Notes under the pieces: model-generated | What the model was told of the DNA's origin: nothing | The model's database searches: none | The model's input: the letters and a program-made list of their open reading frames with translations, nothing else | From: Bryobacterales bacterium | GTDB taxonomy: Bacteria > Acidobacteriota > Terriglobia > Bryobacterales > UBA6623 | NCBI GenBank assembly: GCA_965207035.1 | Contig: OZ242259.1 | Span: forward strand, 668,502 to 732,501 | Length of the DNA stretch: 64,000 bases | Direction of reading: 5' to 3' | Program-made: the position numbers and the translations under genes | Shown: positions 34,392-63,114 of the stretch, in pieces | Position numbering within the stretch: the first letter of the stretch is position 1 | Layout: each line of letters begins with the position of its first letter

Positions 34392-36311
34392 ATGCCTCGC
34401 AGTTCGAACCGAAGGGCCAGGCTCACGCAGCCGCTTGTGCGGCGGAACGGGTCTCTGCAGCCGACGACCTGGGATCATGCATTGGACGTAGCCGCGGGCG
34501 CGTTTCAGCACGCGATTGACAGAAACCCCACCCGGTCGTTCGGCATGTTTAGTTGTTCGAAGACAACGAACGAACTCAACTACACTGCGCAGAAATTTGT
34601 TCGGACCGTCATCGGCTCGAACAATATCGACAGTTGCAACCGCACTTGACACGCACCGAGCGTCGTCGGTCTGGCGACAGTGTTCGGGGCGGGCGGGGGC
34701 ACGAGTTCGTACCAGGAGGTAGAGGAGACGGACCTGATCGTCCTCTGGGGGTCCAACGCCCGCGATACCCATCCGATCTATTTTCACCATGTGCTCAAGG
34801 GCATCCGGAATGGTGCATCCCTTTATGTGATCGACCCGCGCCGCACAAGTTCCGCCCAATGGGCGGACCGTTGGCTAGGTCTGGATGTTGGCACGGACAT
34901 CGTTCTCGCTCATGCAGTCGGTCGAGAGATTCTGGCCCAAGGCCTCGAGAACCGGCATTTCATCGAGCACGCTACCAGCGGCCTGGATGCATATCGCGAA
35001 GCGGTTCAGCATTGCACTCTCGATTTCGCGGAGAAGACGACGGGCGTCCCGAGAGAGGCCATTCGGGAACTGGCGCATGCGTATGCCACAGCTCCGACGG
35101 CGCAGTTGTGTTGGACCCTGGGGATTACCGAACACCACAACGCCGTCGACAATGTGCTGGCCCTGATCAACCTCGCGCTGTTGACCGGCCATGTCGGACG
35201 ATACGGATCGGGGCTGTGTCCTCTTCGCGGGCAAAACAACGTTCAGGGTGGCGGGGACATGGGTGCGTTGCCCGATCGCCTGCCGGGATTCCAGCATGTC
35301 GAGAACAGTGGCCTGCGAGCCAAGTTCGAAGCCGCCTGGGGCTGCAGTGTTCCTCCCGAGAAGGGCTGGAATTTGAGTGAAATGCTCCATGCGATGGACA
35401 CCGGGGAACCGAATACGCTCTACGTGTTGGGAGAAAATCCAATTGGTTCCGAGCCCGATAGCCGCAGCACGATGAGACGCATGAAGGCCTTGGAGTTCCT
35501 GGTCGTCCAGGACATCGTCATGACCCAGACAGCCGAGATCGCGGATGTTGTGCTGCCCGCGCAAGCGGGATGGGCCGAATCGGAAGGGACTGTGACCAGC
35601 AGCGAGAGACGCGTGCAGAGGGTCAGACGTGCCGTGATTCCGCCTGGAGGCGCGCGCGACGACATGCGCATTCTCTTCGACCTGGCCCGTCGGCTGGGAC
35701 ATGACTGGGGCGAACCGGTGGCGGAGGAGATCTGGGACGAGTTGCGTGGTCTGAGTCCGATGCACGCCGGGATGAGTTACGCTCGACTGGACCGTCTTGG
35801 AGGCATTCGCTGGCCGTGCTACGACGAAATGCACCCTGGAGAGTTGTTTCTGCACGGGCGCCTGTGGGCCGATCCCATGATTGGACCGCGCGCGCCATTC
35901 AGTCCCGTGCCGCACGACCCGCCCGTTGAGCAGCTTGACGATGAGTTTCCCGTGCGCCTGACGACTGGACGGCGCCTCGATGCATTCAACACCGGAGTTC
36001 AGTCCGACAGCTATTCGTCTCCGTTGCGCAGGCGCGAGACGCTTGACATATCGCCGGAGGACGGCGAAGCGTACGGATTGGAGGAGTTCGAGAGAGTCCG
36101 AGTGACGTCGAGGCGAGGATCCCTGGTCATTCCCGTACGATTCGATGCCGGGCTGCGTCCCGGTTTGGCATTCATGACACCTCATTCCCCGGATCATGCG
36201 GATGCGAACGTGCTGACAATAGATGCGATCGATCCGAAATCGGGAACCGCCGAGTTCAAGGCTTGCGCAGTTCGCATTGATAAGATGAGAGCCGCTCCGA
36301 GCGGCGATTGA
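34392..36311 (+). CDS. Selenocysteine-containing formate dehydrogenase catalytic (Mo/W-bisPGD) subunit lacking the N-terminal Fe-S domain
   Basis: ORFs 34392..34649 and 34680..36311 are in the same frame, joined through TGA 34647-34649 in NIDSCNRT-U-HAPS; PLRGQNNVQGGGDMG and GTAEFKACAV motifs; SECIS immediately downstream. Confidence 0.92.
34650..34680 (+). promoter_or_regulatory. Bacterial SECIS element
   Basis: gtcgtc-GGTCT-ggcgac hairpin (34662-34678); GGUCU begins at nt 22 counting from the U of UGA, as in E. coli fdhF. Confidence 0.88.
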
Positions 36312-48834: not shown

Positions 48835-51075
48835 CAGGGCTATTTTATTGTCCGTGGTTGAGGAGGCGCACAGCCGTGGGTGAGGGGCTGAGCGGGCTTT
48901 CCTGCTAGACGCTGCGATTCTCGGTTCCTCGCAGTCCGGTCCGCAGGGGCTGGACATTTTGTTGTCGATCTGTCACTCTGGGTCCGATGGGGCCGTTGCC
49001 GACCCAGCGCCGCGCTGTGGACGTGCGCGCGGTCACCGTGCGCCCGACCTTCGGCGCCCAGGAACACCGTCACTGGGACCGGCTGGTCGCGGCCCATCAC
49101 TACCTGGGGTTTGGGGGCCTGTTCGGCAAGGGCTTGCGGCAGGTGGCGACGCTGGGCTCGACGTGGGTCGCGCTGGTGGGCTGGCAGGCGGCCGCGCTCA
49201 AGCTCACGGCCCGTGACCGCTGGATCGGCTGGACCCTGGAGCAGCAGTTGCAGCGCCTGCATCTGGTGGCCCAGAACTCCCGCTTTGTGATCCTGCCGGA
49301 CTACCAGGGGGTACCCAATCTGGCCTCGCGGGTGCTGGGGCTGAGCCTGCGGCGGTTGAGCGGCGACATGCAACGCGAGCACGGATTTCCGATCTTGCTG
49401 GCGGAGTCATTCGTGGACCGGGCACTCTTCGCTGGGACCTGCTATCGGGCGGCGAACTGGCGCTCGCTGGGGTTCACCGGCGGCTACGCACGCCAGCCGG
49501 CCGCGGTGCCGGAGTGGCGCCATCACGGCCAGCCCAAGGAGGTGCTTGTGTACGAATTGGAAGCGCATGCGAGGGCGGCCTTGGGCCAGCCCGAGGAGGA
49601 TCCGGCCTGGCAGGGCCCGGCGCGGACCGCGCCGCCGTCCGCGCCGCAGTTGCGCAGCATGTTCGAGTGCCTGGGCGAGGTGCCGGACTACCGTTGCGCG
49701 CGGGGCCAGCGTTACCGCCTGCGCACGGTGCTGGTGCTGGCCATGGCGGCGCGGCTGGCCGGCTACCGCGGGGTGACCGCGTTCGCCCAGTTCGCGGCCC
49801 TGCTGGACCCGGCGCAGCGCCAGGCGGTGGGCTGTTTCTACAGTCCCAGCCGGCAGCGCTACACGACCCCGTCGATCACCACGTTCCACAACATCCTGGC
49901 CACCCTGCCGCCGGAGACGCTGGAGCAGGCGGTGGCGGCTTGGACCTGGCAGCAGAACGGGCAAGTCCCGCCGGATGAGGAGGATAGCGGCTCGCAGGAA
50001 ACGGCCGGGAGGGTCCCCGGGGAAGACGCCCGGCCCACGCTCCTGGCGGGTATCGCGATGGACGGGAAGGATGTCCGCGGGGCCTCGAAGCAGACGCCGG
50101 ACGGCCGCCGCATGCTGGTCGCGGCCGTGGAGCACTCCCCCACGCGGGTGCTGGGACAGGTCGCGGTCGCCTCCAAGACCAACGAGATCCCGGCGGTGCG
50201 CGAACTGGCCGCGGGGTTGGACCTGGCCGGATGCGCCGTCACCCTCGACGCGCTGCACGCGCAGCAGGAGACGGCGCGCAGCCTGCTCGAGGACTGCGCT
50301 GCCGACTACCTGATCACCAGCATCAAGGACAACCAGCCAACGATCCTGGACGACCTCCAGCACATGCTGTTCCCGGACGCTCCCGACCACGAGACCCTCG
50401 ACAAGGAGCACGGCCGCATCGAGCGCCGCCGCTACTGGGTGAAGGATCTCAGCGACCCGGACTGGGACGGCTATGCCGACCTGTACGGCCGCCAGCAGGC
50501 CATCCGCATCGAGCGCGAGCGGCAGGTGGTCAAGACCGGAGAGACCAGCACCGCAGTGAGCTACGCGCTGACCTCGCTGACGGCGGAGCAGGCCACGCCC
50601 GCGCAGCTGGCGGCGCTGATCCGCAACCACTGGCACATTGAGAACCGCCTGCACTACGTGCGGGACTTCACCTACGACGAGGACCGCTGCCGGGTGTGGG
50701 TGCGCGACCTGCCGCGCAATCTGGCCTGCCTGACCAACGCGGCGATCTCGATCATCCGCTGCCAGCCCGAGTTCCGCTGGGTGCCGGAGGCCAACCGCCA
50801 TTACGCGGGCCGTCCGCAGGAGGCGCTGGACCTGCTGCTGGCCCCGCCCCGGAGCTAGCCTGGCCGGCGCGCTGGCCAGCGCGCCGTGTTCCGCCGGACC
50901 CGGCGGAGCCGTACCGCTGTGTCCGCGCTTGCGATCCAGCCGTCGCAGCCGCCCGAGGCGCCTGCCCGAGCCCCTCGTGGCTGGCCGTCGGGGCCGTGTC
51001 CAGCGACTGCACAGGACGTGGAAGCAGGCATCAACCTCTCTGAGACCGCCTCAACAGGACAAAAAAATGTGCCTG
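48835..51075 (+). mobile_element. ISAs1-family insertion sequence, copy 1 (2241 bp)
   Basis: Imperfect terminal IRs CAGGGCTATTTTATTGTCC / CAGGCACATTTTTTTGTCC; 10-bp target duplication GCTGCGCTGG at 48825-48834 and 51076-51085. Confidence 0.95.
48987..50858 (+). CDS. ISAs1-family transposase with N-terminal DUF4338 (DruA-like) domain
   Basis: N-term: HHYLG, NSRFVILP, PNLASRVL, ESFVD, GTCYRAANW; C-term ISAs1 DDE: IAMDGK, TLDALHAQ, KDNQP, HGRIERR, HWHIENRLHYVRD. Confidence 0.92.
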   Translation: MGPLPTQRRAVDVRAVTVRPTFGAQEHRHWDRLVAAHHYLGFGGLFGKGLRQVATLGSTWVALVGWQAAALKLTARDRWIGWTLEQQLQRLHLVAQNSRFVILPDYQGVPNLASRVLGLSLRRLSGDMQREHGFPILLAESFVDRALFAGTCYRAANWRSLGFTGGYARQPAAVPEWRHHGQPKEVLVYELEAHARAALGQPEEDPAWQGPARTAPPSAPQLRSMFECLGEVPDYRCARGQRYRLRTVLVLAMAARLAGYRGVTAFAQFAALLDPAQRQAVGCFYSPSRQRYTTPSITTFHNILATLPPETLEQAVAAWTWQQNGQVPPDEEDSGSQETAGRVPGEDARPTLLAGIAMDGKDVRGASKQTPDGRRMLVAAVEHSPTRVLGQVAVASKTNEIPAVRELAAGLDLAGCAVTLDALHAQQETARSLLEDCAADYLITSIKDNQPTILDDLQHMLFPDAPDHETLDKEHGRIERRRYWVKDLSDPDWDGYADLYGRQQAIRIERERQVVKTGETSTAVSYALTSLTAEQATPAQLAALIRNHWHIENRLHYVRDFTYDEDRCRVWVRDLPRNLACLTNAAISIIRCQPEFRWVPEANRHYAGRPQEALDLLLAPPRS

Positions 51076-51121
51076 GCTGCGCTGGCAGCGGTCGTGAACC
51101 GGGTGGCTGTACCATGGATGG

Positions 51122-51619
51122 ATGGCGGCATTACTGCAGGGTTCAAGAGCGCCCGATTTCGCGTTGCCGGATGCCGATGGCACGCAGTTCCGCCTCTCAT
51201 CCGCGCTGCGGTCCGGCCCCGTGCTAGTGACCTTCTACAAGACGGACTGCCCAACCTGTCAGTACGGGCTTCCGTTCTTGGACCGGCTTGCCGGCGGGTT
51301 TGACGGCAGTGGCGCGACGGCTGTCGCTGTGTCTCAGGACACGCCCTTCGAATCTGAGCGTTTTTCCGCTGAGTACGGATTCTCGACCCGCCAAGTCTTT
51401 GACGCGGAGGATTCGGGGTTTCCTGTTTCCGACGCGTACGGGCTCACCAATGTGCCGTCGACGTTTCTCATTGCACAGGACGGACGAATCGCGCACACCA
51501 TGGTGAGCTGGTCCAAGGCGGACGTAGAGGAGATCGCCCGCAAGTTGAATCTCAGTCCGCCGTTCGAGCCAGGGGAGGACGTGCTCCCGTTCCGGCCTGG
51601 TTGAGGGTCACGCAACTAG
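51122..51619 (+). CDS. AhpC/TSA (TlpA-like) redoxin, probable selenoprotein with near-terminal Sec (…FRPG-U-GSRN*)
   Basis: APDFALPD, CPTC active site, YGLTNVPSTFLI; TGA 51602-51604 followed in frame by GGG TCA CGC AAC TAG and a SECIS-like hairpin. The ORF is certain; Sec readthrough is inferred. Confidence 0.82.
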
Positions 51620-51634
51620 CTCCGGTCCGGAGCT
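51605..51634 (+). promoter_or_regulatory. Putative SECIS element
   Basis: agctcc-GGTCC-ggagct hairpin (51618-51634); GGUCC starts at nt 23 from the U of UGA, within 1 nt of the fdh SECIS geometry in this window. Confidence 0.72.
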
Positions 51635-52057
51635 TCCTCTTCAGTTTGAACGTCGTGTCCGGGTAGGCCCGAAGGGTTCTCGTGCACGCGCTCCCTGCGA
51701 CCGTGCCCGAGCGCGGATGCCAAGCCGACCGACGACTCTCCGAAACGGTTCCGGAGATCATCCACCGCCCGGAGAGCACGAGACCATTTTTCTGCGCCAT
51801 CGGAGTCGAAAAGGCCCACTTGGTGCTGTGGGCTGCCTTGTAGCGAGCCTGCGTGCACGCCAAGCAATCGGATCGCTCGGTTCGGCTTGTGATGTTGATT
51901 GTAGAGAAACCGAACCGTGCTCAGTATCACTCCGTCAATTTGGGTCGCCTCGGACAATGTCTTGGAACGGGTCTGCGTGACGAAGTCCTGGTCACGGATC
52001 TTGACCTGAATCGTCTTCGCCCACAGGTGGTGTTCGCGGAGGCGTCTCGCCACTAGC

Positions 52058-54017
52058 CCTAACTTACCCGCCCAGAAAATAGACGGTAGGGCCTAACAGC
52101 TGTTGAAGCAACTGCTTAGCGTCGGATCTGGCAATTTTGTGTACCCATGTAATTGGATTGTTGACTTCCTGTATCACAATTCGATAGGGTTTGTTTAGTA
52201 GCCATGTACATCGAGTCCGTCCCCAACCGCAACTCGCCCCCGGCCATCCTCCTCCGCGAGTCCTTCCGCGTCGGCTCCAAAGTCCGCAAGCGCACCATCC
52301 TCAACCTCTCCAAGTGGCCCCCGGACCTCGTCGAGGGCCTCCGCACTCTGCTCAAGGGCGGCACTGCCGTCGCCAACCTTCAGGACTATTTCGCCATCGT
52401 CCGCTCCCGCCCCCACGGCCATGTCGCCGCCGTCCTCGGCTCCCTCCGCTCTCTCGGCCTCGACTCCCTCATCGATCCCAACCCCTCCCGCTCCCGCTCC
52501 CTCGCCATGGCCCTCGTCGTCTCGCGCATCCTCCAGCCGCGCTCCAAGCTGGCCACCTCCCGCTGCCTCGACCCCGCCTCCCTGGCCCACTCCCTCGGCG
52601 ACGAACTCCAGCTCGGCCACCCCGATGCCGACGACCTCTATGCCGCCATGGACTGGCTCCTGCCCCGCCAGCACGCCATCGAGCAGGCCCTCGCCAAACG
52701 CCATCTCAGCGACGCCTCCCTCGTCCTCGCCGACGTCACCTCCACCTACCTCGAGGGCTCCCACTGCCCCCTCGCCGCCCGCGGCCATTCCCGCGACGGC
52801 AAGCGCGGCAAGCTCCAGATCGTCTTCTCCCTGCTGTGCAACCGTGACGGCTGCCCCGTCGCCGTCCAGGTCTTCCCCGGCAACACCGCCGATCCCGCCA
52901 CCGTCGGCCCCCAGCTCGACACCCTGCGGCGCCGCTTCGGCCTCGCCCGCCTGGTGGTCGTCGGCGATCGCGGCCTGCTCACCGAGGCCCGCATCCGCGA
53001 CGAACTGCGCCCCGCCGGCCTCGACTGGATCTCCGCCTTGCGCGCCCCCGCCATCCGCGATCTCGCCCGCCAGGGCGCCTTCCAAATGTCCCTCTTCGAC
53101 CACCAGGACCTCGCCGCAATCACTTCCCCGGACTATCCCGGCGAGCGTCTGCTGCTGTGCCGCAACCCCCTGCTGGCCGCCAAGCGCGCCCGCCAGCGCG
53201 AGGCCCTGCTGCAAGCCACCGAGAAACTGCTCGACCCGATCGTCGCCGCCACCCAGCGCACCCAGCGGCCCCTGCGCCGCGCCGCCAGCATCGGCCTCCG
53301 GGTCGGCAAGGTCGTCTCCAAGTTCAAGGTGCGCAAGCATTTCGAACTGACCATCGAGGAGGGCCACTTCGGCTACCGCCGCAACCAAGCCGGCATCGAC
53401 GCCGAGGCGGCCCTGGACGGCCTCTACGTGGTCCGCACCAGCGTGGCGGCCGAGGAGCTCGGGCCGGCCGATGCCGTGCGCACCTACAAGAGCCTCAGCG
53501 CCGTCGAGCGCGCCTTCCGCAGCTTCAAGACGGTGGACCTGAAGGTCCGCCCGATCTACCACTACCTCGAAGACCGCGTGCGCGCCCACGTGCTCGTCTG
53601 CATGCTGGCTTACTACGTCGAGTGGCACATGCAGCGGCGGCTCGCCCCGCTGCTGTTCAAGGACGCCGATCCGGACGCGGCGCAAGCCGCGCGGAAGTCG
53701 GTGGTGCAGCCCGCGCAAGTCTCGCCGGAGGCCCGCGCCAAGGCACGCACCCAGCGCACTGCCGCCGGCGAACCGGTCCATAGCTTCCCAACCCTGCTGG
53801 CCGACCTGGCGACGATTGTCAAGAATCGCATCCAGCCCCATGGCGGAGGCAAACCGTTCGACATGCTCACGCGACCGACGGAATTGCAGCGCAAGGCGCT
53901 CGAACTGCTCGGAGTCAGCCTGACCTGTACCCAGTAAATCTCCAGCTGCGAAATCCTAAATCGCTGAAACTACGAGAGAAACCAAGAGCCCGACTATTTT
54001 CTGGAGGGTAAGTTAGG
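52058..54017 (+). mobile_element. IS1634-family insertion sequence (1960 bp)
   Basis: Terminal IRs CCTAACTTACCCGCCCAGAAAATAG / CCTAACTTACCCTCCAGAAAATAG; 6-bp target duplication ACTAGC at 52052-52057 and 54018-54023. Confidence 0.93.
52204..53937 (+). CDS. IS1634-family transposase
   Basis: MYIESVPNRNSPPAILLRES, DVTSTYLEG, GHSRDGK, FPGNTAD, VGDRG, DGLYVVRT, YKSLSAVERAFRSFK, RPIYH, RVRAHV. Confidence 0.93.
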   Translation: MYIESVPNRNSPPAILLRESFRVGSKVRKRTILNLSKWPPDLVEGLRTLLKGGTAVANLQDYFAIVRSRPHGHVAAVLGSLRSLGLDSLIDPNPSRSRSLAMALVVSRILQPRSKLATSRCLDPASLAHSLGDELQLGHPDADDLYAAMDWLLPRQHAIEQALAKRHLSDASLVLADVTSTYLEGSHCPLAARGHSRDGKRGKLQIVFSLLCNRDGCPVAVQVFPGNTADPATVGPQLDTLRRRFGLARLVVVGDRGLLTEARIRDELRPAGLDWISALRAPAIRDLARQGAFQMSLFDHQDLAAITSPDYPGERLLLCRNPLLAAKRARQREALLQATEKLLDPIVAATQRTQRPLRRAASIGLRVGKVVSKFKVRKHFELTIEEGHFGYRRNQAGIDAEAALDGLYVVRTSVAAEELGPADAVRTYKSLSAVERAFRSFKTVDLKVRPIYHYLEDRVRAHVLVCMLAYYVEWHMQRRLAPLLFKDADPDAAQAARKSVVQPAQVSPEARAKARTQRTAAGEPVHSFPTLLADLATIVKNRIQPHGGGKPFDMLTRPTELQRKALELLGVSLTCTQ

Positions 54018-54858
54018 ACTAGCTGGGATAACTTCGCCAGGGTGGCATCGATTAGTACCGGGTCGCGGGAGTCCACCGGGAATGTAGTTTCGTGGCTGAT
54101 TGACTTCGGGCTCGTGTTCTCAGAGACTCCCGGGGAAAACCAGGCTCCGGCATCACGTCCGAGCGACTTGCCCGCGAGGGCAACCCCTGCACGGCCGAAG
54201 TTTCGTTCGAGGAATGCCTCCCCGCGCTCCGCCGCTTGTCCGATCGTCTCGATCCCCGCCTTCCTCAATCTGGCTTGCATCACTTTCCCTACACCCGGAA
54301 TCCGGCCGATGTCCAGAGGGGCAAGAAACGCCGCCTCGGATCCTGGTTCTACGAAGAGCACTCCGTTGGGCTTGGCGAATCCCGAGCCGATCTTTGCCAT
54401 GAGGCGGGAAGTTCCGATTCCGATCGAGCAGGGCAGGGAGGTATCGCTGCGAACAGCTTCGTGCAGGGCATGGGCTGCCCGCAGTGGCGGTCCCAGCAAT
54501 CTCTGAGTCCCTGTGAGGTCGAGATAGGCTTCATCGATCGATGCCATCTCGACGCGCGGCGAGAAGCGGTCTAGCGTGTTCCGGATGCGACGCGAGTAAT
54601 GCAGGTACTTGTGCGGATTCCCCTCCAGGAAGATTGCCTGCGGACAGCGCCGGTACGCTTCTCGCAATGGCATCGCAGACCGCACGCCGAACTTGCGAGC
54701 GGCATACGAAGCAGCCGCCACGACGCCGCGTTCGCCGGGCTTTCCACCAACAACGACCGGCTTTTCCTTCAGGGATGGATCCGCAAGTTCTTCAACGGAG
54801 ACGAAGAAAGCGTCCATGTCAAGATGGAACACCACACGCTTCCTTTCGGTAGAGTCCA

Positions 54859-55467
54859 TCATCGTCGGCTGACGAAGTCATTGTGAGCGATAAAAAAGCG
54901 AAGGTCAAGCTCCCGGGATCTTGAGATGCCAATCCGTTTCGATCGCCGTACCTCGATTCGCTGGGCACGGTTGAAGAGGCGCACTGTCAATGGACCCATG
55001 AGTAAGTCGGTGCCGTAGAGGCCCATCTGGATCGCCATGGCGGCAGTCAGCTTTGCAGGGCCGCTGGCAATATCCTCAACCTTGCGCGCGGTTGCTCGGC
55101 GCTGCCTCATTGCCTCGATTCCGCACAAGGGTTCCAGAGCGCGGATCAGCACGCAGCCGGGTTGGCCGTCGGGCTCGGCTACAACGTTAAGGCAGTGATG
55201 CAGCCCGTAGATCCTGTAGACGTATGCGTGCCCGGGCGGTCCATAGATTACTTGGGTTCGAGGTGTCCGGCCAGCAGCGCTATGGGCGGCATGGTCAGCT
55301 TGGCCCAGATATGCCTCGGTCTCTACGATTCGTCCAGCTGCAAGGCCTTCATCCGTACGGTTGATCAGGACGGCACCCAGAAGATCCTTCGCTACCTCGA
55401 CCGTGGGACGGGCGTAGAAGGCCCGCACGGGCAAGTGGGTCGACAGCTTGAGTTCGTGAGCATTCAC
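54859..55467 (-). CDS. mpg: 3-methyladenine DNA glycosylase (Mpg/AAG family)
   Basis: VAKDLLG, GRIVETEAYLG, AYVYRIYGLHHCLNVV, VLIRALEP, SGPAKL, RIGIS; ATGATGA overlap with dinB. Confidence 0.93.
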   Translation of the reverse strand: MNAHELKLSTHLPVRAFYARPTVEVAKDLLGAVLINRTDEGLAAGRIVETEAYLGQADHAAHSAAGRTPRTQVIYGPPGHAYVYRIYGLHHCLNVVAEPDGQPGCVLIRALEPLCGIEAMRQRRATARKVEDIASGPAKLTAAMAIQMGLYGTDLLMGPLTVRLFNRAQRIEVRRSKRIGISRSRELDLRFFIAHNDFVSRR

Positions 55468-60873: not shown

Positions 60874-63114
60874 CAGGCACATTTTTTTGTCCTGTTGAGG
60901 CGGTCTCAGAGAGGTTGATGCCTGCTTCCACGTCCTGTGCAGTCGCTGGACACGGCCCCGACGGCCAGCCACGAGGGGCTCGGGCAGGCGCCTCGGGCGG
61001 CTGCGACGGCTGGATCGCAAGCGCGGACACAGCGGTACGGCTCCGCCGGGTCCGGCGGAACACGGCGCGCTGGCCAGCGCGCCGGCCAGGCTAGCTCCGG
61101 GGCGGGGCCAGCAGCAGGTCCAGCGCCTCCTGCGGACGGCCCGCGTAATGGCGGTTGGCCTCCGGCACCCAGCGGAACTCGGGCTGGCAGCGGATGATCG
61201 AGATCGCCGCGTTGGTCAGGCAGGCCAGATTGCGCGGCAGGTCGCGCACCCACACCCGGCAGCGGTCCTCGTCGTAGGTGAAGTCCCGCACGTAGTGCAG
61301 GCGGTTCTCAATGTGCCAGTGGTTGCGGATCAGCGCCGCCAGCTGCGCGGGCGTGGCCTGCTCCGCCGTCAGCGAGGTCAGCGCGTAGCTCACTGCGGTG
61401 CTGGTCTCTCCGGTCTTGACCACCTGCCGCTCGCGCTCGATGCGGATGGCCTGCTGGCGGCCGTACAGGTCGGCATAGCCGTCCCAGTCCGGGTCGCTGA
61501 GATCCTTCACCCAGTAGCGGCGGCGCTCGATGCGGCCGTGCTCCTTGTCGAGGGTCTCGTGGTCGGGAGCGTCCGGGAACAGCATGTGCTGGAGGTCGTC
61601 CAGGATCGTTGGCTGGTTGTCCTTGATGCTGGTGATCAGGTAGTCGGCAGCGCAGTCCTCGAGCAGGCTGCGCGCCGTCTCCTGCTGCGCGTGCAGCGCG
61701 TCGAGGGTGACGGCGCATCCGGCCAGGTCCAACCCCGCGGCCAGTTCGCGCACCGCCGGGATCTCGTTGGTCTTGGAGGCGACCGCGACCTGTCCCAGCA
61801 CCCGCGTGGGGGAGTGCTCCACGGCCGCGACCAGCATGCGGCGGCCGTCCGGCGTCTGCTTCGAGGCCCCGCGGACATCCTTCCCGTCCATCGCGATACC
61901 CGCCAGGAGCGTGGGCCGGGCGTCTTCCCCGGGGACCCTCCCGGCCGTTTCCTGCGAGCCGCTATCCTCCTCATCCGGCGGGACTTGCCCGTTCTGCTGC
62001 CAGGTCCAAGCCGCCACCGCCTGCTCCAGCGTCTCCGGCGGCAGGGTGGCCAGGATGTTGTGGAACGTGGTGATCGACGGGGTCGTGTAGCGCTGCCGGC
62101 TGGGACTGTAGAAACAGCCCACCGCCTGGCGCTGCGCCGGGTCCAGCAGGGCCGCGAACTGGGCGAACGCGGTCACCCCGCGGTAGCCGGCCAGCCGCGC
62201 CGCCATGGCCAGCACCAGCACCGTGCGCAGGCGGTAACGCTGGCCCCGCGCGCAACGGTAGTCCGGCACCTCGCCCAGGCACTCGAACATGCTGCGCAAC
62301 TGCGGCGCGGACGGCGGCGCGGTCCGCGCCGGGCCCTGCCAGGCCGGATCCTCCTCGGGCTGGCCCAAGGCCGCCCTCGCATGCGCTTCCAATTCGTACA
62401 CAAGCACCTCCTTGGGCTGGCCGTGATGGCGCCACTCCGGCACCGCGGCCGGCTGGCGTGCGTAGCCGCCGGTGAACCCCAGCGAGCGCCAGTTCGCCGC
62501 CCGATAGCAGGTCCCAGCGAAGAGTGCCCGGTCCACGAATGACTCCGCCAGCAAGATCGGAAATCCGTGCTCGCGTTGCATGTCGCCGCTCAACCGCCGC
62601 AGGCTCAGCCCCAGCACCCGCGAGGCCAGATTGGGTACCCCCTGGTAGTCCGGCAGGATCACAAAGCGGGAGTTCTGGGCCACCAGATGCAGGCGCTGCA
62701 ACTGCTGCTCCAGGGTCCAGCCGATCCAGCGGTCACGGGCCGTGAGCTTGAGCGCGGCCGCCTGCCAGCCCACCAGCGCGACCCACGTCGAGCCCAGCGT
62801 CGCCACCTGCCGCAAGCCCTTGCCGAACAGGCCCCCAAACCCCAGGTAGTGATGGGCCGCGACCAGCCGGTCCCAGTGACGGTGTTCCTGGGCGCCGAAG
62901 GTCGGGCGCACGGTGACCGCGCGCACGTCCACAGCGCGGCGCTGGGTCGGCAACGGCCCCATCGGACCCAGAGTGACAGATCGACAACAAAATGTCCAGC
63001 CCCTGCGGACCGGACTGCGAGGAACCGAGAATCGCAGCGTCTAGCAGGAAAGCCCGCTCAGCCCCTCACCCACGGCTGTGCGCCTCCTCAACCACGGACA
63101 ATAAAATAGCCCTG
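60874..63114 (-). mobile_element. ISAs1-family insertion sequence, copy 2 (2241 bp, inverted relative to copy 1)
   Basis: Same IRs and same length as copy 1; its own 10-bp target duplication GGGGCGTTCG at 60864-60873 and 63115-63124. Confidence 0.95.
61091..62962 (-). CDS. ISAs1-family transposase with N-terminal DUF4338 domain (copy 2)
   Basis: 623-aa translation identical to 48987..50858. Confidence 0.92.
   Translation of the reverse strand: MGPLPTQRRAVDVRAVTVRPTFGAQEHRHWDRLVAAHHYLGFGGLFGKGLRQVATLGSTWVALVGWQAAALKLTARDRWIGWTLEQQLQRLHLVAQNSRFVILPDYQGVPNLASRVLGLSLRRLSGDMQREHGFPILLAESFVDRALFAGTCYRAANWRSLGFTGGYARQPAAVPEWRHHGQPKEVLVYELEAHARAALGQPEEDPAWQGPARTAPPSAPQLRSMFECLGEVPDYRCARGQRYRLRTVLVLAMAARLAGYRGVTAFAQFAALLDPAQRQAVGCFYSPSRQRYTTPSITTFHNILATLPPETLEQAVAAWTWQQNGQVPPDEEDSGSQETAGRVPGEDARPTLLAGIAMDGKDVRGASKQTPDGRRMLVAAVEHSPTRVLGQVAVASKTNEIPAVRELAAGLDLAGCAVTLDALHAQQETARSLLEDCAADYLITSIKDNQPTILDDLQHMLFPDAPDHETLDKEHGRIERRRYWVKDLSDPDWDGYADLYGRQQAIRIERERQVVKTGETSTAVSYALTSLTAEQATPAQLAALIRNHWHIENRLHYVRDFTYDEDRCRVWVRDLPRNLACLTNAAISIIRCQPEFRWVPEANRHYAGRPQEALDLLLAPPRS

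Follow-up and report, generated by a model that had tools for sequence, protein, structure and literature searches.

Bacterial selenoproteins of the thioredoxin fold are known in several forms, including the UGC-containing TlpA proteins (ResA-like WAxxUGC, NF041054), a Redoxin family with a UxxC motif and a Prx-like thiol:disulfide oxidoreductase (PMC13188914 Table 1). In the listed TlpA and redoxin selenoproteins, selenocysteine (Sec, U) replaces an active-site Cys. A near-terminal Sec is also known, in proteins of other folds: the Haft and Gwadz preprint describes SaoC, which ends Cys-Sec-COOH and whose UGA-UAG precedes a 7-bp stem carrying a GGU loop, and also names KCU-star, while UXX-star families are listed in a 2026 review (PMC13188914). 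Here, we describe a redoxin gene of a Bryobacterales bacterium (Acidobacteriota) that combines features of both groups. It lies in a stretch of 64,000 nucleotides (the window; GCA_965207035.1, contig OZ242259.1, positions 668,502 to 732,501, forward strand), in which it occupies positions 51122-51619 of the + strand. The CxxC motif of the protein is intact, Sec would stand about 115 residues downstream of it in a C-terminal tail, and a hairpin of the type read by SelB follows the true stop codon. Judged from comparative sequence evidence, the redoxin is very probably a true selenoprotein with its hairpin beyond the stop codon, and it appears to represent a new selenoprotein family.

The closest structural relatives are ResA and TlpA, with which the redoxin shares the fold and the position of the CxxC (Bacillus subtilis ResA, PDB 1su9, 3c71), although a reading of the sequence shows neither their signal peptide nor their membrane anchor. 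It further differs from ResA in a C-terminal extension of about 35 residues, ending G-U-G-S-R-N, which has no counterpart in the solved chains. No model of NCBIfam release 20 scores above its cut-off, the best being ResA (60 bits vs a cut-off of 170), and NF041054 reaches 34 bits vs a cut-off of 300. SaoC, KCU-star and UXX-star likewise have a near-terminal Sec and therefore a SelB hairpin after the true stop, so that such a hairpin is not new and has natural precedents in SaoC and KCU-star. Their folds and motifs are unrelated to those of the redoxin, none of their NCBIfam models matches it at E <=0.01 (14 NCBIfam matches in all), and unlike in these families, Sec forms of the redoxin far outnumber Cys forms.

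Mammalian thioredoxin reductase carries a C-terminal Gly-Cys-Sec-Gly arm beside a dithiol centre. A first, sequence-only reading of the window had compared the redoxin tail to this arm, and the comparison holds as an analogy of mechanism only: in both proteins Sec is near-terminal and flanked by Gly, and stopping at UGA leaves a nearly full-length protein. The redoxin differs in having no adjacent Cys-Sec pair, no flavin (FAD/NADPH) domain and no eukaryotic selenocysteine insertion sequence (SECIS), and its tail is predicted to be ordered.

Two other assignments were considered and rejected. The peroxiredoxin motif is PxxxTxxC(U) (PMC13188914), and the redoxin reads VTFYKTDCPTCQ, in which neither Cys has a Pro at -7 or a Thr at -3; the NCBIfam Prx models score far below cut-off. 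The UGSC family (NF041046 / PF24696) gives no match to the redoxin at E <=0.01, and the UGSC gene of this genome lies elsewhere. The redoxin family is missing from the 119 families and subfamilies of PMC13188914 Table 1, where Sec belongs to the active-site motif in every redoxin, TlpA and Prx-like entry, and no description of it was found in the literature searched by full text, a coverage that excluded Haft and Tolstoy 2025 (PMC12013261) and most supplements. A literature search with the motif string gave only plant PgUGT papers among the matches listed, and the Occallatibacter list of the deep-Sep supplement begins with an AhpD-like and a deiodinase-like protein. We thus regard the family as undescribed and unpublished with moderate confidence.

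The UGA codon and the translated tail

The called open reading frame (51122-51604, + strand) starts at ATG 51122, comprises 160 codons and ends at TGA 51602-51604. Past this TGA the frame continues with GGG TCA CGC AAC (51605-51616; Gly-Ser-Arg-Asn) and then TAG (51617-51619), just as the sequence-only reading had proposed, and with TGA read as U, the protein ends ...VLPFRPG-U-GSRN. The full coding sequence, 51122-51619, thus specifies 165 residues (160, Sec at residue 161, and GSRN) plus the TAG stop, and orthologs align over residues 1-165 with a single in-frame TGA. The TAG overlaps the stop (CTA, 51616-51618) of a convergent dinB fragment.

Orthologs were searched for with the extended protein in 61 related genomes. 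One with a single TGA at the Sec codon was present in 42 genomes and a Cys ortholog in three (PGCGSRN in G001 and G029, PGCSSKN in G032), while in the remaining 16 no ortholog was found with this query. The copy of G023, one of the 42, is split by a frameshift (locus L061, G023:C56:147097-148386) into two pieces in different frames, one matching query residues 1-87 and the other, which keeps the TGA, residues 85-164; it is either a pseudogene or an assembly error. In two distant loci, L055 and L056, the TGA is followed by longer tails of 15 residues. A collection with one genome per species held at least 590 relatives of the redoxin among the 600 pattern matches listed, and the best 80 of at least 600 such matches were analysed as loci. 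Their titles name Bryobacterales, Terriglobales, Acidobacteriaceae, Candidatus Sulfotelmatobacter and similar metagenome-assembled genomes, apart from one 3.9-kb contig labelled Rhodothermales, and their Sec codon is TGA in 77 and TGT in three. Pooling the related genomes with these 80 public loci gave 108 distinct segments of 80 nucleotides, with TGA in 105 and TGT (Cys) in three. In the alignment of 37 ortholog proteins, G160, U/C161 and G162 are invariant.

The four codons after the TGA vary as codons do. In 41 tabulated loci, the Gly codon takes all four GGN forms and is followed by TCC, TCG, TCT, TCA, AGC or an Ala codon, then by one of eight Arg/Lys codons (rarely Leu) and finally by AAC or AAT. 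The tail in the best 80 public loci reads (G/S)-S/A-(K/R/L)-N, with a stop directly after it in all 80 (TGA 35, TAG 27, TAA 18); the stop follows Asn equally in all 41 tabulated loci (TAG 34, TGA 5, TAA 2), a table from which the longer-tailed L055 and L056 were left out. Across the 108 segments, mean column entropy at codon positions 1, 2 and 3 is 0.56, 0.63 and 1.40 bits in the ten codons before the TGA and 0.47, 0.27 and 1.33 bits in the four codons after it, and the three-base periodicity of variation runs unbroken across the TGA. The conservation of the tail does not come from the other strand, since the dinB fragment shares only one base with the tail codons and since the gene downstream of the redoxin differs from dinB in the Terriglobales loci. 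By sequence comparison, the UGA and the four codons after it are shown to be under coding selection.

Database annotation largely misses this, as the sequence-only reading had anticipated. Among 268 homologs from two protein searches, 201 end at the Sec site, as do 109 of the 150 best cluster representatives, and 11 of the 268 are ...PG-Cys forms. The homologs therefore bear out the expected pattern of PG-TGA-G(S/A)(K/R)N-stop and, rarely, PG-Cys-GSRN-stop. One cluster representative, P0238, has Arg at the Sec position (...LPGRGTKN), which could stem from a TGA-to-CGA change, and another, P0139, ends ...KPGGGGAA.

The hairpin and the selenocysteine machinery

The SECIS-type hairpin occupies 51618-51634 (+ strand), with a 6-bp stem AGCUCC/GGAGCU (51618-51623 and 51629-51634) and the loop GGUCC (51624-51628) at nucleotides 23-27, the U of UGA being nucleotide 1. 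It starts 13 nucleotides after the UGA, within the true stop codon, and lies wholly past the last sense codon in untranslated RNA; stem, loop and position all agree with the sequence-only reading. That reading had also pointed to the Sec-containing formate dehydrogenase (FDH) of the same window; a bacterial SECIS of formate dehydrogenase is also known from E. coli fdhF. The window's FDH (...NRT-U-HAPS...) has its Sec codon at 34647 and its hairpin (GUCGUC/GGCGAC, stem 34662-34667 / 34673-34678; whole element 34647-34678, + strand) carries the loop GGUCU at nucleotides 22-26. The two elements share the short stem, the GGUC(U/C) loop and a G and U about 22-25 nucleotides from the U of UGA; they differ in that the FDH hairpin is translated, whereas the redoxin hairpin begins within the stop codon.

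A hairpin accompanies the gene at all 41 loci of the related genomes and at all 80 of the best public loci. Between orders the stem is swapped wholesale, with changes in one arm compensated in the other (AGCUCC/GGAGCU, UCCCGC/GCGGGA, GCCGCC/GGCGGC, GGCGCC/GGCGCU, AGUCUC/GAGACU and AGUUCC/GGAACU are examples), and the loop stays GGU(C/U) about 23-27 nucleotides from the UGA. In a loop-anchored count over 107 distinct sequences, which are related to one another and include 30 distinct 5' arms, the inner six positions are 97.2% paired, vs a mean of 56.5% and a maximum of 63.7% after 1000 shuffles of the 3' arms, and the loop starts at nucleotide 23-26 in 99 of the 107. This count replaced a covariance model built from an order-level alignment (R1), because R1 transferred poorly to Terriglobales (51 matches from 93 sources at E <=0.001); alignment A5 was poor as well. 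R1 gave no match to the FDH hairpin, since the tail codons are part of that model as well.

Contigs from RNA libraries cover 51201-51383 (X17, X18) and 51520-51680 (X19); they carry neither strand nor ends, DNA carry-over is possible, and dinB lies on the other strand. X19 runs across the TGA and the stop and through the hairpin, and differs by C>T at 51628.

The machinery that the selenoprotein reading calls for is present in the source genome, with selB (358.5 bits vs a cut-off of 242), selA (511.5 vs 268) and selD (296 vs 125), all without internal stops, and a tRNA-Sec. Elsewhere in this genome TGA serves as a stop; the FDH gene, for one, ends with it. In the related genomes, selA is above cut-off in 54 of 61 and in 41 of the 42 that carry the TGA form of the redoxin, in line with the expectation that this form occurs in sel-positive genomes, and of the seven genomes that have no selA, six are also without a redoxin ortholog.

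The genome holds a third selenoprotein gene, of the UGSC family (G000 2705932-2706438), with one TGA (ALAD-U-GSCTTC) and a possible CGUGCA/UGCACG stem with a GUU loop at nucleotides 23-25, for which RNAfold favours another fold. Next to it lies a 522-residue paralog of the redoxin (G000:C1 2706536-2708104, - strand; the pair together G000:C1:2705932-2708104, locus L046 1433-3605, minus strand), whose N-terminal redoxin domain ends ...FQPG-C-VSRH. The PGC is kept in all 11 paralog loci (FQPGCVSRH in nine, PGCASRH and PGCMSRH in the other two), and by sequence it forms a second, more distant Sec/Cys pairing. The C-terminal domain of the paralog, of about 360 residues, has no Pfam or NCBIfam match and occurs only once in the genome, with no copy next to the redoxin loci. 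The UGSC gene follows the paralog in nine of the 11 loci, and in the Atlas cluster of the unassigned domain, UGSC occurs on 16% of members (rank 30, score 0.89), which is a weak lead. A tie between UGSC and the standalone redoxin was rejected, as no match to UGSC was found in 14 genomes that carry the TGA form, and UGSC occurs with no redoxin ortholog in G024, G026 and G034.

Fold, proposed chemistry and alternative readings

The protein is a 165-residue redoxin of the ResA/TlpA fold. Pfam places it above the cut-offs of both AhpC-TSA (E 4.5e-20) and Redoxin (E 2.1e-16), and its PDB profile matches are ResA and other TlpA-type thiol-disulfide oxidoreductases, the best being ResA 3c71 (E 6e-20, query residues 6-130). 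The AlphaFold2 model has a mean predicted local distance difference test score (pLDDT) of 96.2 and a predicted template modelling score of 0.92, and Foldseek aligns it to ResA with E 1.6e-12 and a template modelling score of 0.71. The CPTC motif (residues 43-46, codons 51248-51259) opens a helix predicted at residues 44-58, and Pfam, PDB profile and fold matches agree on the marks of a thioredoxin fold, a CxxC at the N-terminus of the first long helix together with a Pro loop. Invariant among 37 aligned orthologs are C43, C46, V111, P112, G160, U/C161, G162 and N165, of which P112 would adopt the cis conformation. M1 lies 10 residues ahead of a conserved APDF that pairs with the soluble ResA domain at its residue 2, and neither signal peptide nor membrane anchor was seen on reading the sequence, with no predictor run; because the export signal and anchor of ResA and TlpA are missing in this reading, the redoxin is probably cytoplasmic. 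The sequence-only reading had supposed a flexible Sec tail, and here the model disagrees: residues 151-160 have a mean pLDDT of 97 and residues 161-165 one of 95, and the tail is probably ordered rather than a loose arm.

UGA 51602 is very probably decoded as Sec by SelB and tRNA-Sec under the direction of the post-stop hairpin. In the mechanism that we propose for the protein, Sec161, on the ordered C-terminal extension, would attack an oxidised substrate (peroxide, sulfenate or disulfide), C43 would resolve the selenenyl intermediate as an Se-S bond, C46 would close the C43-C46 disulfide, and the thioredoxin system would re-reduce it. This putative relay from Sec161 through C43 and C46 to thioredoxin is offered tentatively, its chances being somewhat below even. 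CP(T/V)CQ is kept in nearly all of the 201 homologs truncated at the Sec site, and only a handful of these Sec forms have an altered CxxC flank, compared to five of the 11 Cys forms (CSTCD in three, CPTCE, CPTCH), with CTTCQ as a sixth; three of them are close kin. We take this as a weak hint, from sequence, that Sec and the CxxC may be coupled. A stop at UGA costs the protein just five residues, and so a stable 160-residue isoform with the CxxC only would be expected when selenium is low.

Several observations weigh against these readings. The loop-anchored count chose for each sequence the register with the most pairing, and seven of the 107 are mis-registered. Within the order, covariation is modest, with 90.8% of cells paired vs 88.6% after shuffling in a model-fitted alignment, because the stem is nearly constant there; in the same alignment, both sides change in three of six pairs and sliding the partner lowers pairing to 25-52%. 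The three TGT loci keep the same hairpin, so that its presence alone is no proof of use, and we read them as recent changes from Sec to Cys. One genome with the TGA form, G050 (86% complete, 840 contigs), yielded no selA. The folding energy of the hairpin is also no better than that of shuffled sequence: over 70 nucleotides z is -0.44 (62 of 200 shuffles fold as well) and over a 50-nucleotide stretch -0.95 (28 of 200 as good), with -1.24 for the FDH element, and stability of whole segments was for this reason dropped as evidence. A count of the pattern says more than stability does: genome-wide, 100 of 147,853 TGA triplets (0.07%) precede a stem of at least 6 bp with a GGU-starting loop at nucleotide 21-26. 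Both the FDH Sec site and the redoxin TGA are among them, and in a genome of this size one such match at a stop codon could arise by chance. As the single pattern match could be chance and the folding energy is unexceptional, the case rests on comparative evidence.

It is this evidence that separates the selenoprotein reading from its alternatives. TGA 51602 might be an ordinary stop of a 160-residue protein, with the downstream conservation due to a terminator or stabilising hairpin shared by the convergent genes, or to the end of dinB. Gene callers do end most database homologs at this TGA, and the hairpin, whose folding energy is unexceptional, lies between convergent genes and overlaps the last dinB codons, but the four codons after the TGA vary at third positions, keep their residues and are followed by a stop; some genomes replace the TGA with a Cys codon and leave the tail unchanged; tail and hairpin persist in Terriglobales despite the different downstream gene; the overlap of dinB with the tail codons is a single base; and in most loci the hairpin has no T run after it. 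We consider an ordinary stop extremely improbable. Insertion of a standard amino acid at the UGA, by near-cognate Trp or Cys or by recoding that is free of SelB, would also fit translation past the UGA, as the data show this translation and not the identity of the inserted residue; the sole other residues at the site in homologs are Cys, in the 11 forms, and the Arg of P0238. A pairing of Cys with TGA is, however, the usual signature of Sec, the GGU loop keeps the spacing typical of SelB, which the FDH of the window also shows, the TGA forms go with selA, and TGA elsewhere in the genome is a stop, so that this alternative too has very little to recommend it.

The main functional rival to the relay accepts the selenoprotein and differs on its chemistry. 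Sec161, C43 and C46 would make up a soft metal or metalloid site (As, Hg, Cu, Se) in a chaperone or sensor, and three invariant chalcogen residues would indeed suit a trigonal site. Against this, no metal-resistance genes are nearby, where the neighbours are dinB, mobile elements and a MutY-like gene, and the fold and the CP(T/V)CQ motif are of the thiol-disulfide oxidoreductase type. We rate a metal site as quite improbable, and retain the redox relay as the working proposal for a redoxin that is very likely a selenoprotein.

Genomic neighbourhood and significance

The hairpin falls within the last six codons of a 3' fragment of dinB (DNA polymerase IV; IMS_C domain, 51616-52053, - strand) that is convergent with the redoxin. 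In this genome dinB is split by an insertion sequence (52204-53937, + strand) encoding a 577-residue DDE transposase, and its N-terminal part, with the IMS and HHH domains, lies at 53915-54862 (- strand); in relatives an uninterrupted dinB (about 425-433 residues) occupies this convergent position. Both the redoxin and the split dinB are enclosed by two identical 2,241-nucleotide copies of another insertion sequence (48835-51075 and 60874-63114), inverted, 100% complementary and 9,798 nucleotides apart, which puts them inside a unit resembling a composite transposon. The left copy ends 46 nucleotides ahead of the redoxin start codon, and its open reading frame of 623 residues (48987-50858) has a DruA-like N-terminal region followed by DDE_Tnp_1_assoc and DDE_Tnp_1.

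Across the Bryobacterales genus, a convergent dinB lies downstream of the redoxin and the upstream region is variable, with mobile elements. In the closest relative (84% identity; L017:1-1278), for example, a group II intron reverse transcriptase/maturase (RVT_1, GIIM) is found upstream of the redoxin, and the spot upstream of the gene draws different mobile elements in different genomes. A GGCTA(C/T)(C/G)AT box lies about 7-12 nucleotides upstream of the start (51100-51121; TACCAT in the window) and, compared at the same place in loci L017-L038, is present in all ten genus members compared. It resembles a -10 element and lies so near the ATG that the transcript may start with no leader or with only a very short one.

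In Terriglobales (loci L094-L154), 34 of 60 loci share a same-strand upstream gene that ends about 60 nucleotides before the redoxin start. Its product, with the ending ...GKWIAIDRIPQIPITGLTRKILKAGGII, looks like the C-terminal part of MutY; the 179 residues in view match NUDIX_4 (29.4 bits) and the EndIII iron-sulfur motif (17.8 bits) below the Pfam cut-offs, because only this fragment is visible. No conserved operon partner of the redoxin was found in the loci compared. The two DNA-damage genes next to the redoxin would fit a role in oxidative stress, which is only a hint. A still broader picture, in which an undescribed and Sec-dominated family, among the most widespread selenoproteins of Acidobacteriota, runs a three-centre chalcogen relay, is switched by selenium between 160- and 165-residue isoforms and protects against oxidative DNA damage, as hinted by its MutY-like and dinB neighbours, is speculative and, taken as a whole, rather unlikely.

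The count of relatives at one genome per species marks the family as common within a phylum dominant in soil, and by sequence the redoxin appears to be an overlooked gene in hundreds of soil Acidobacteriota genomes. Most public copies are annotated five residues short and thus without the probable catalytic residue, and they could be recognised with a simple annotation rule, namely a redoxin ending ...[RK][PA]G-TGA-G/S-S-K/R-N-stop and followed by a GGUC hairpin. With its SelB hairpin past the stop codon, the gene also offers a small natural model of this arrangement. For the biology of the group, the finding adds a family to the Acidobacteriota selenoproteome, and the ratio of 105 Sec to three Cys codons suggests that selection strongly favours selenium chemistry here.

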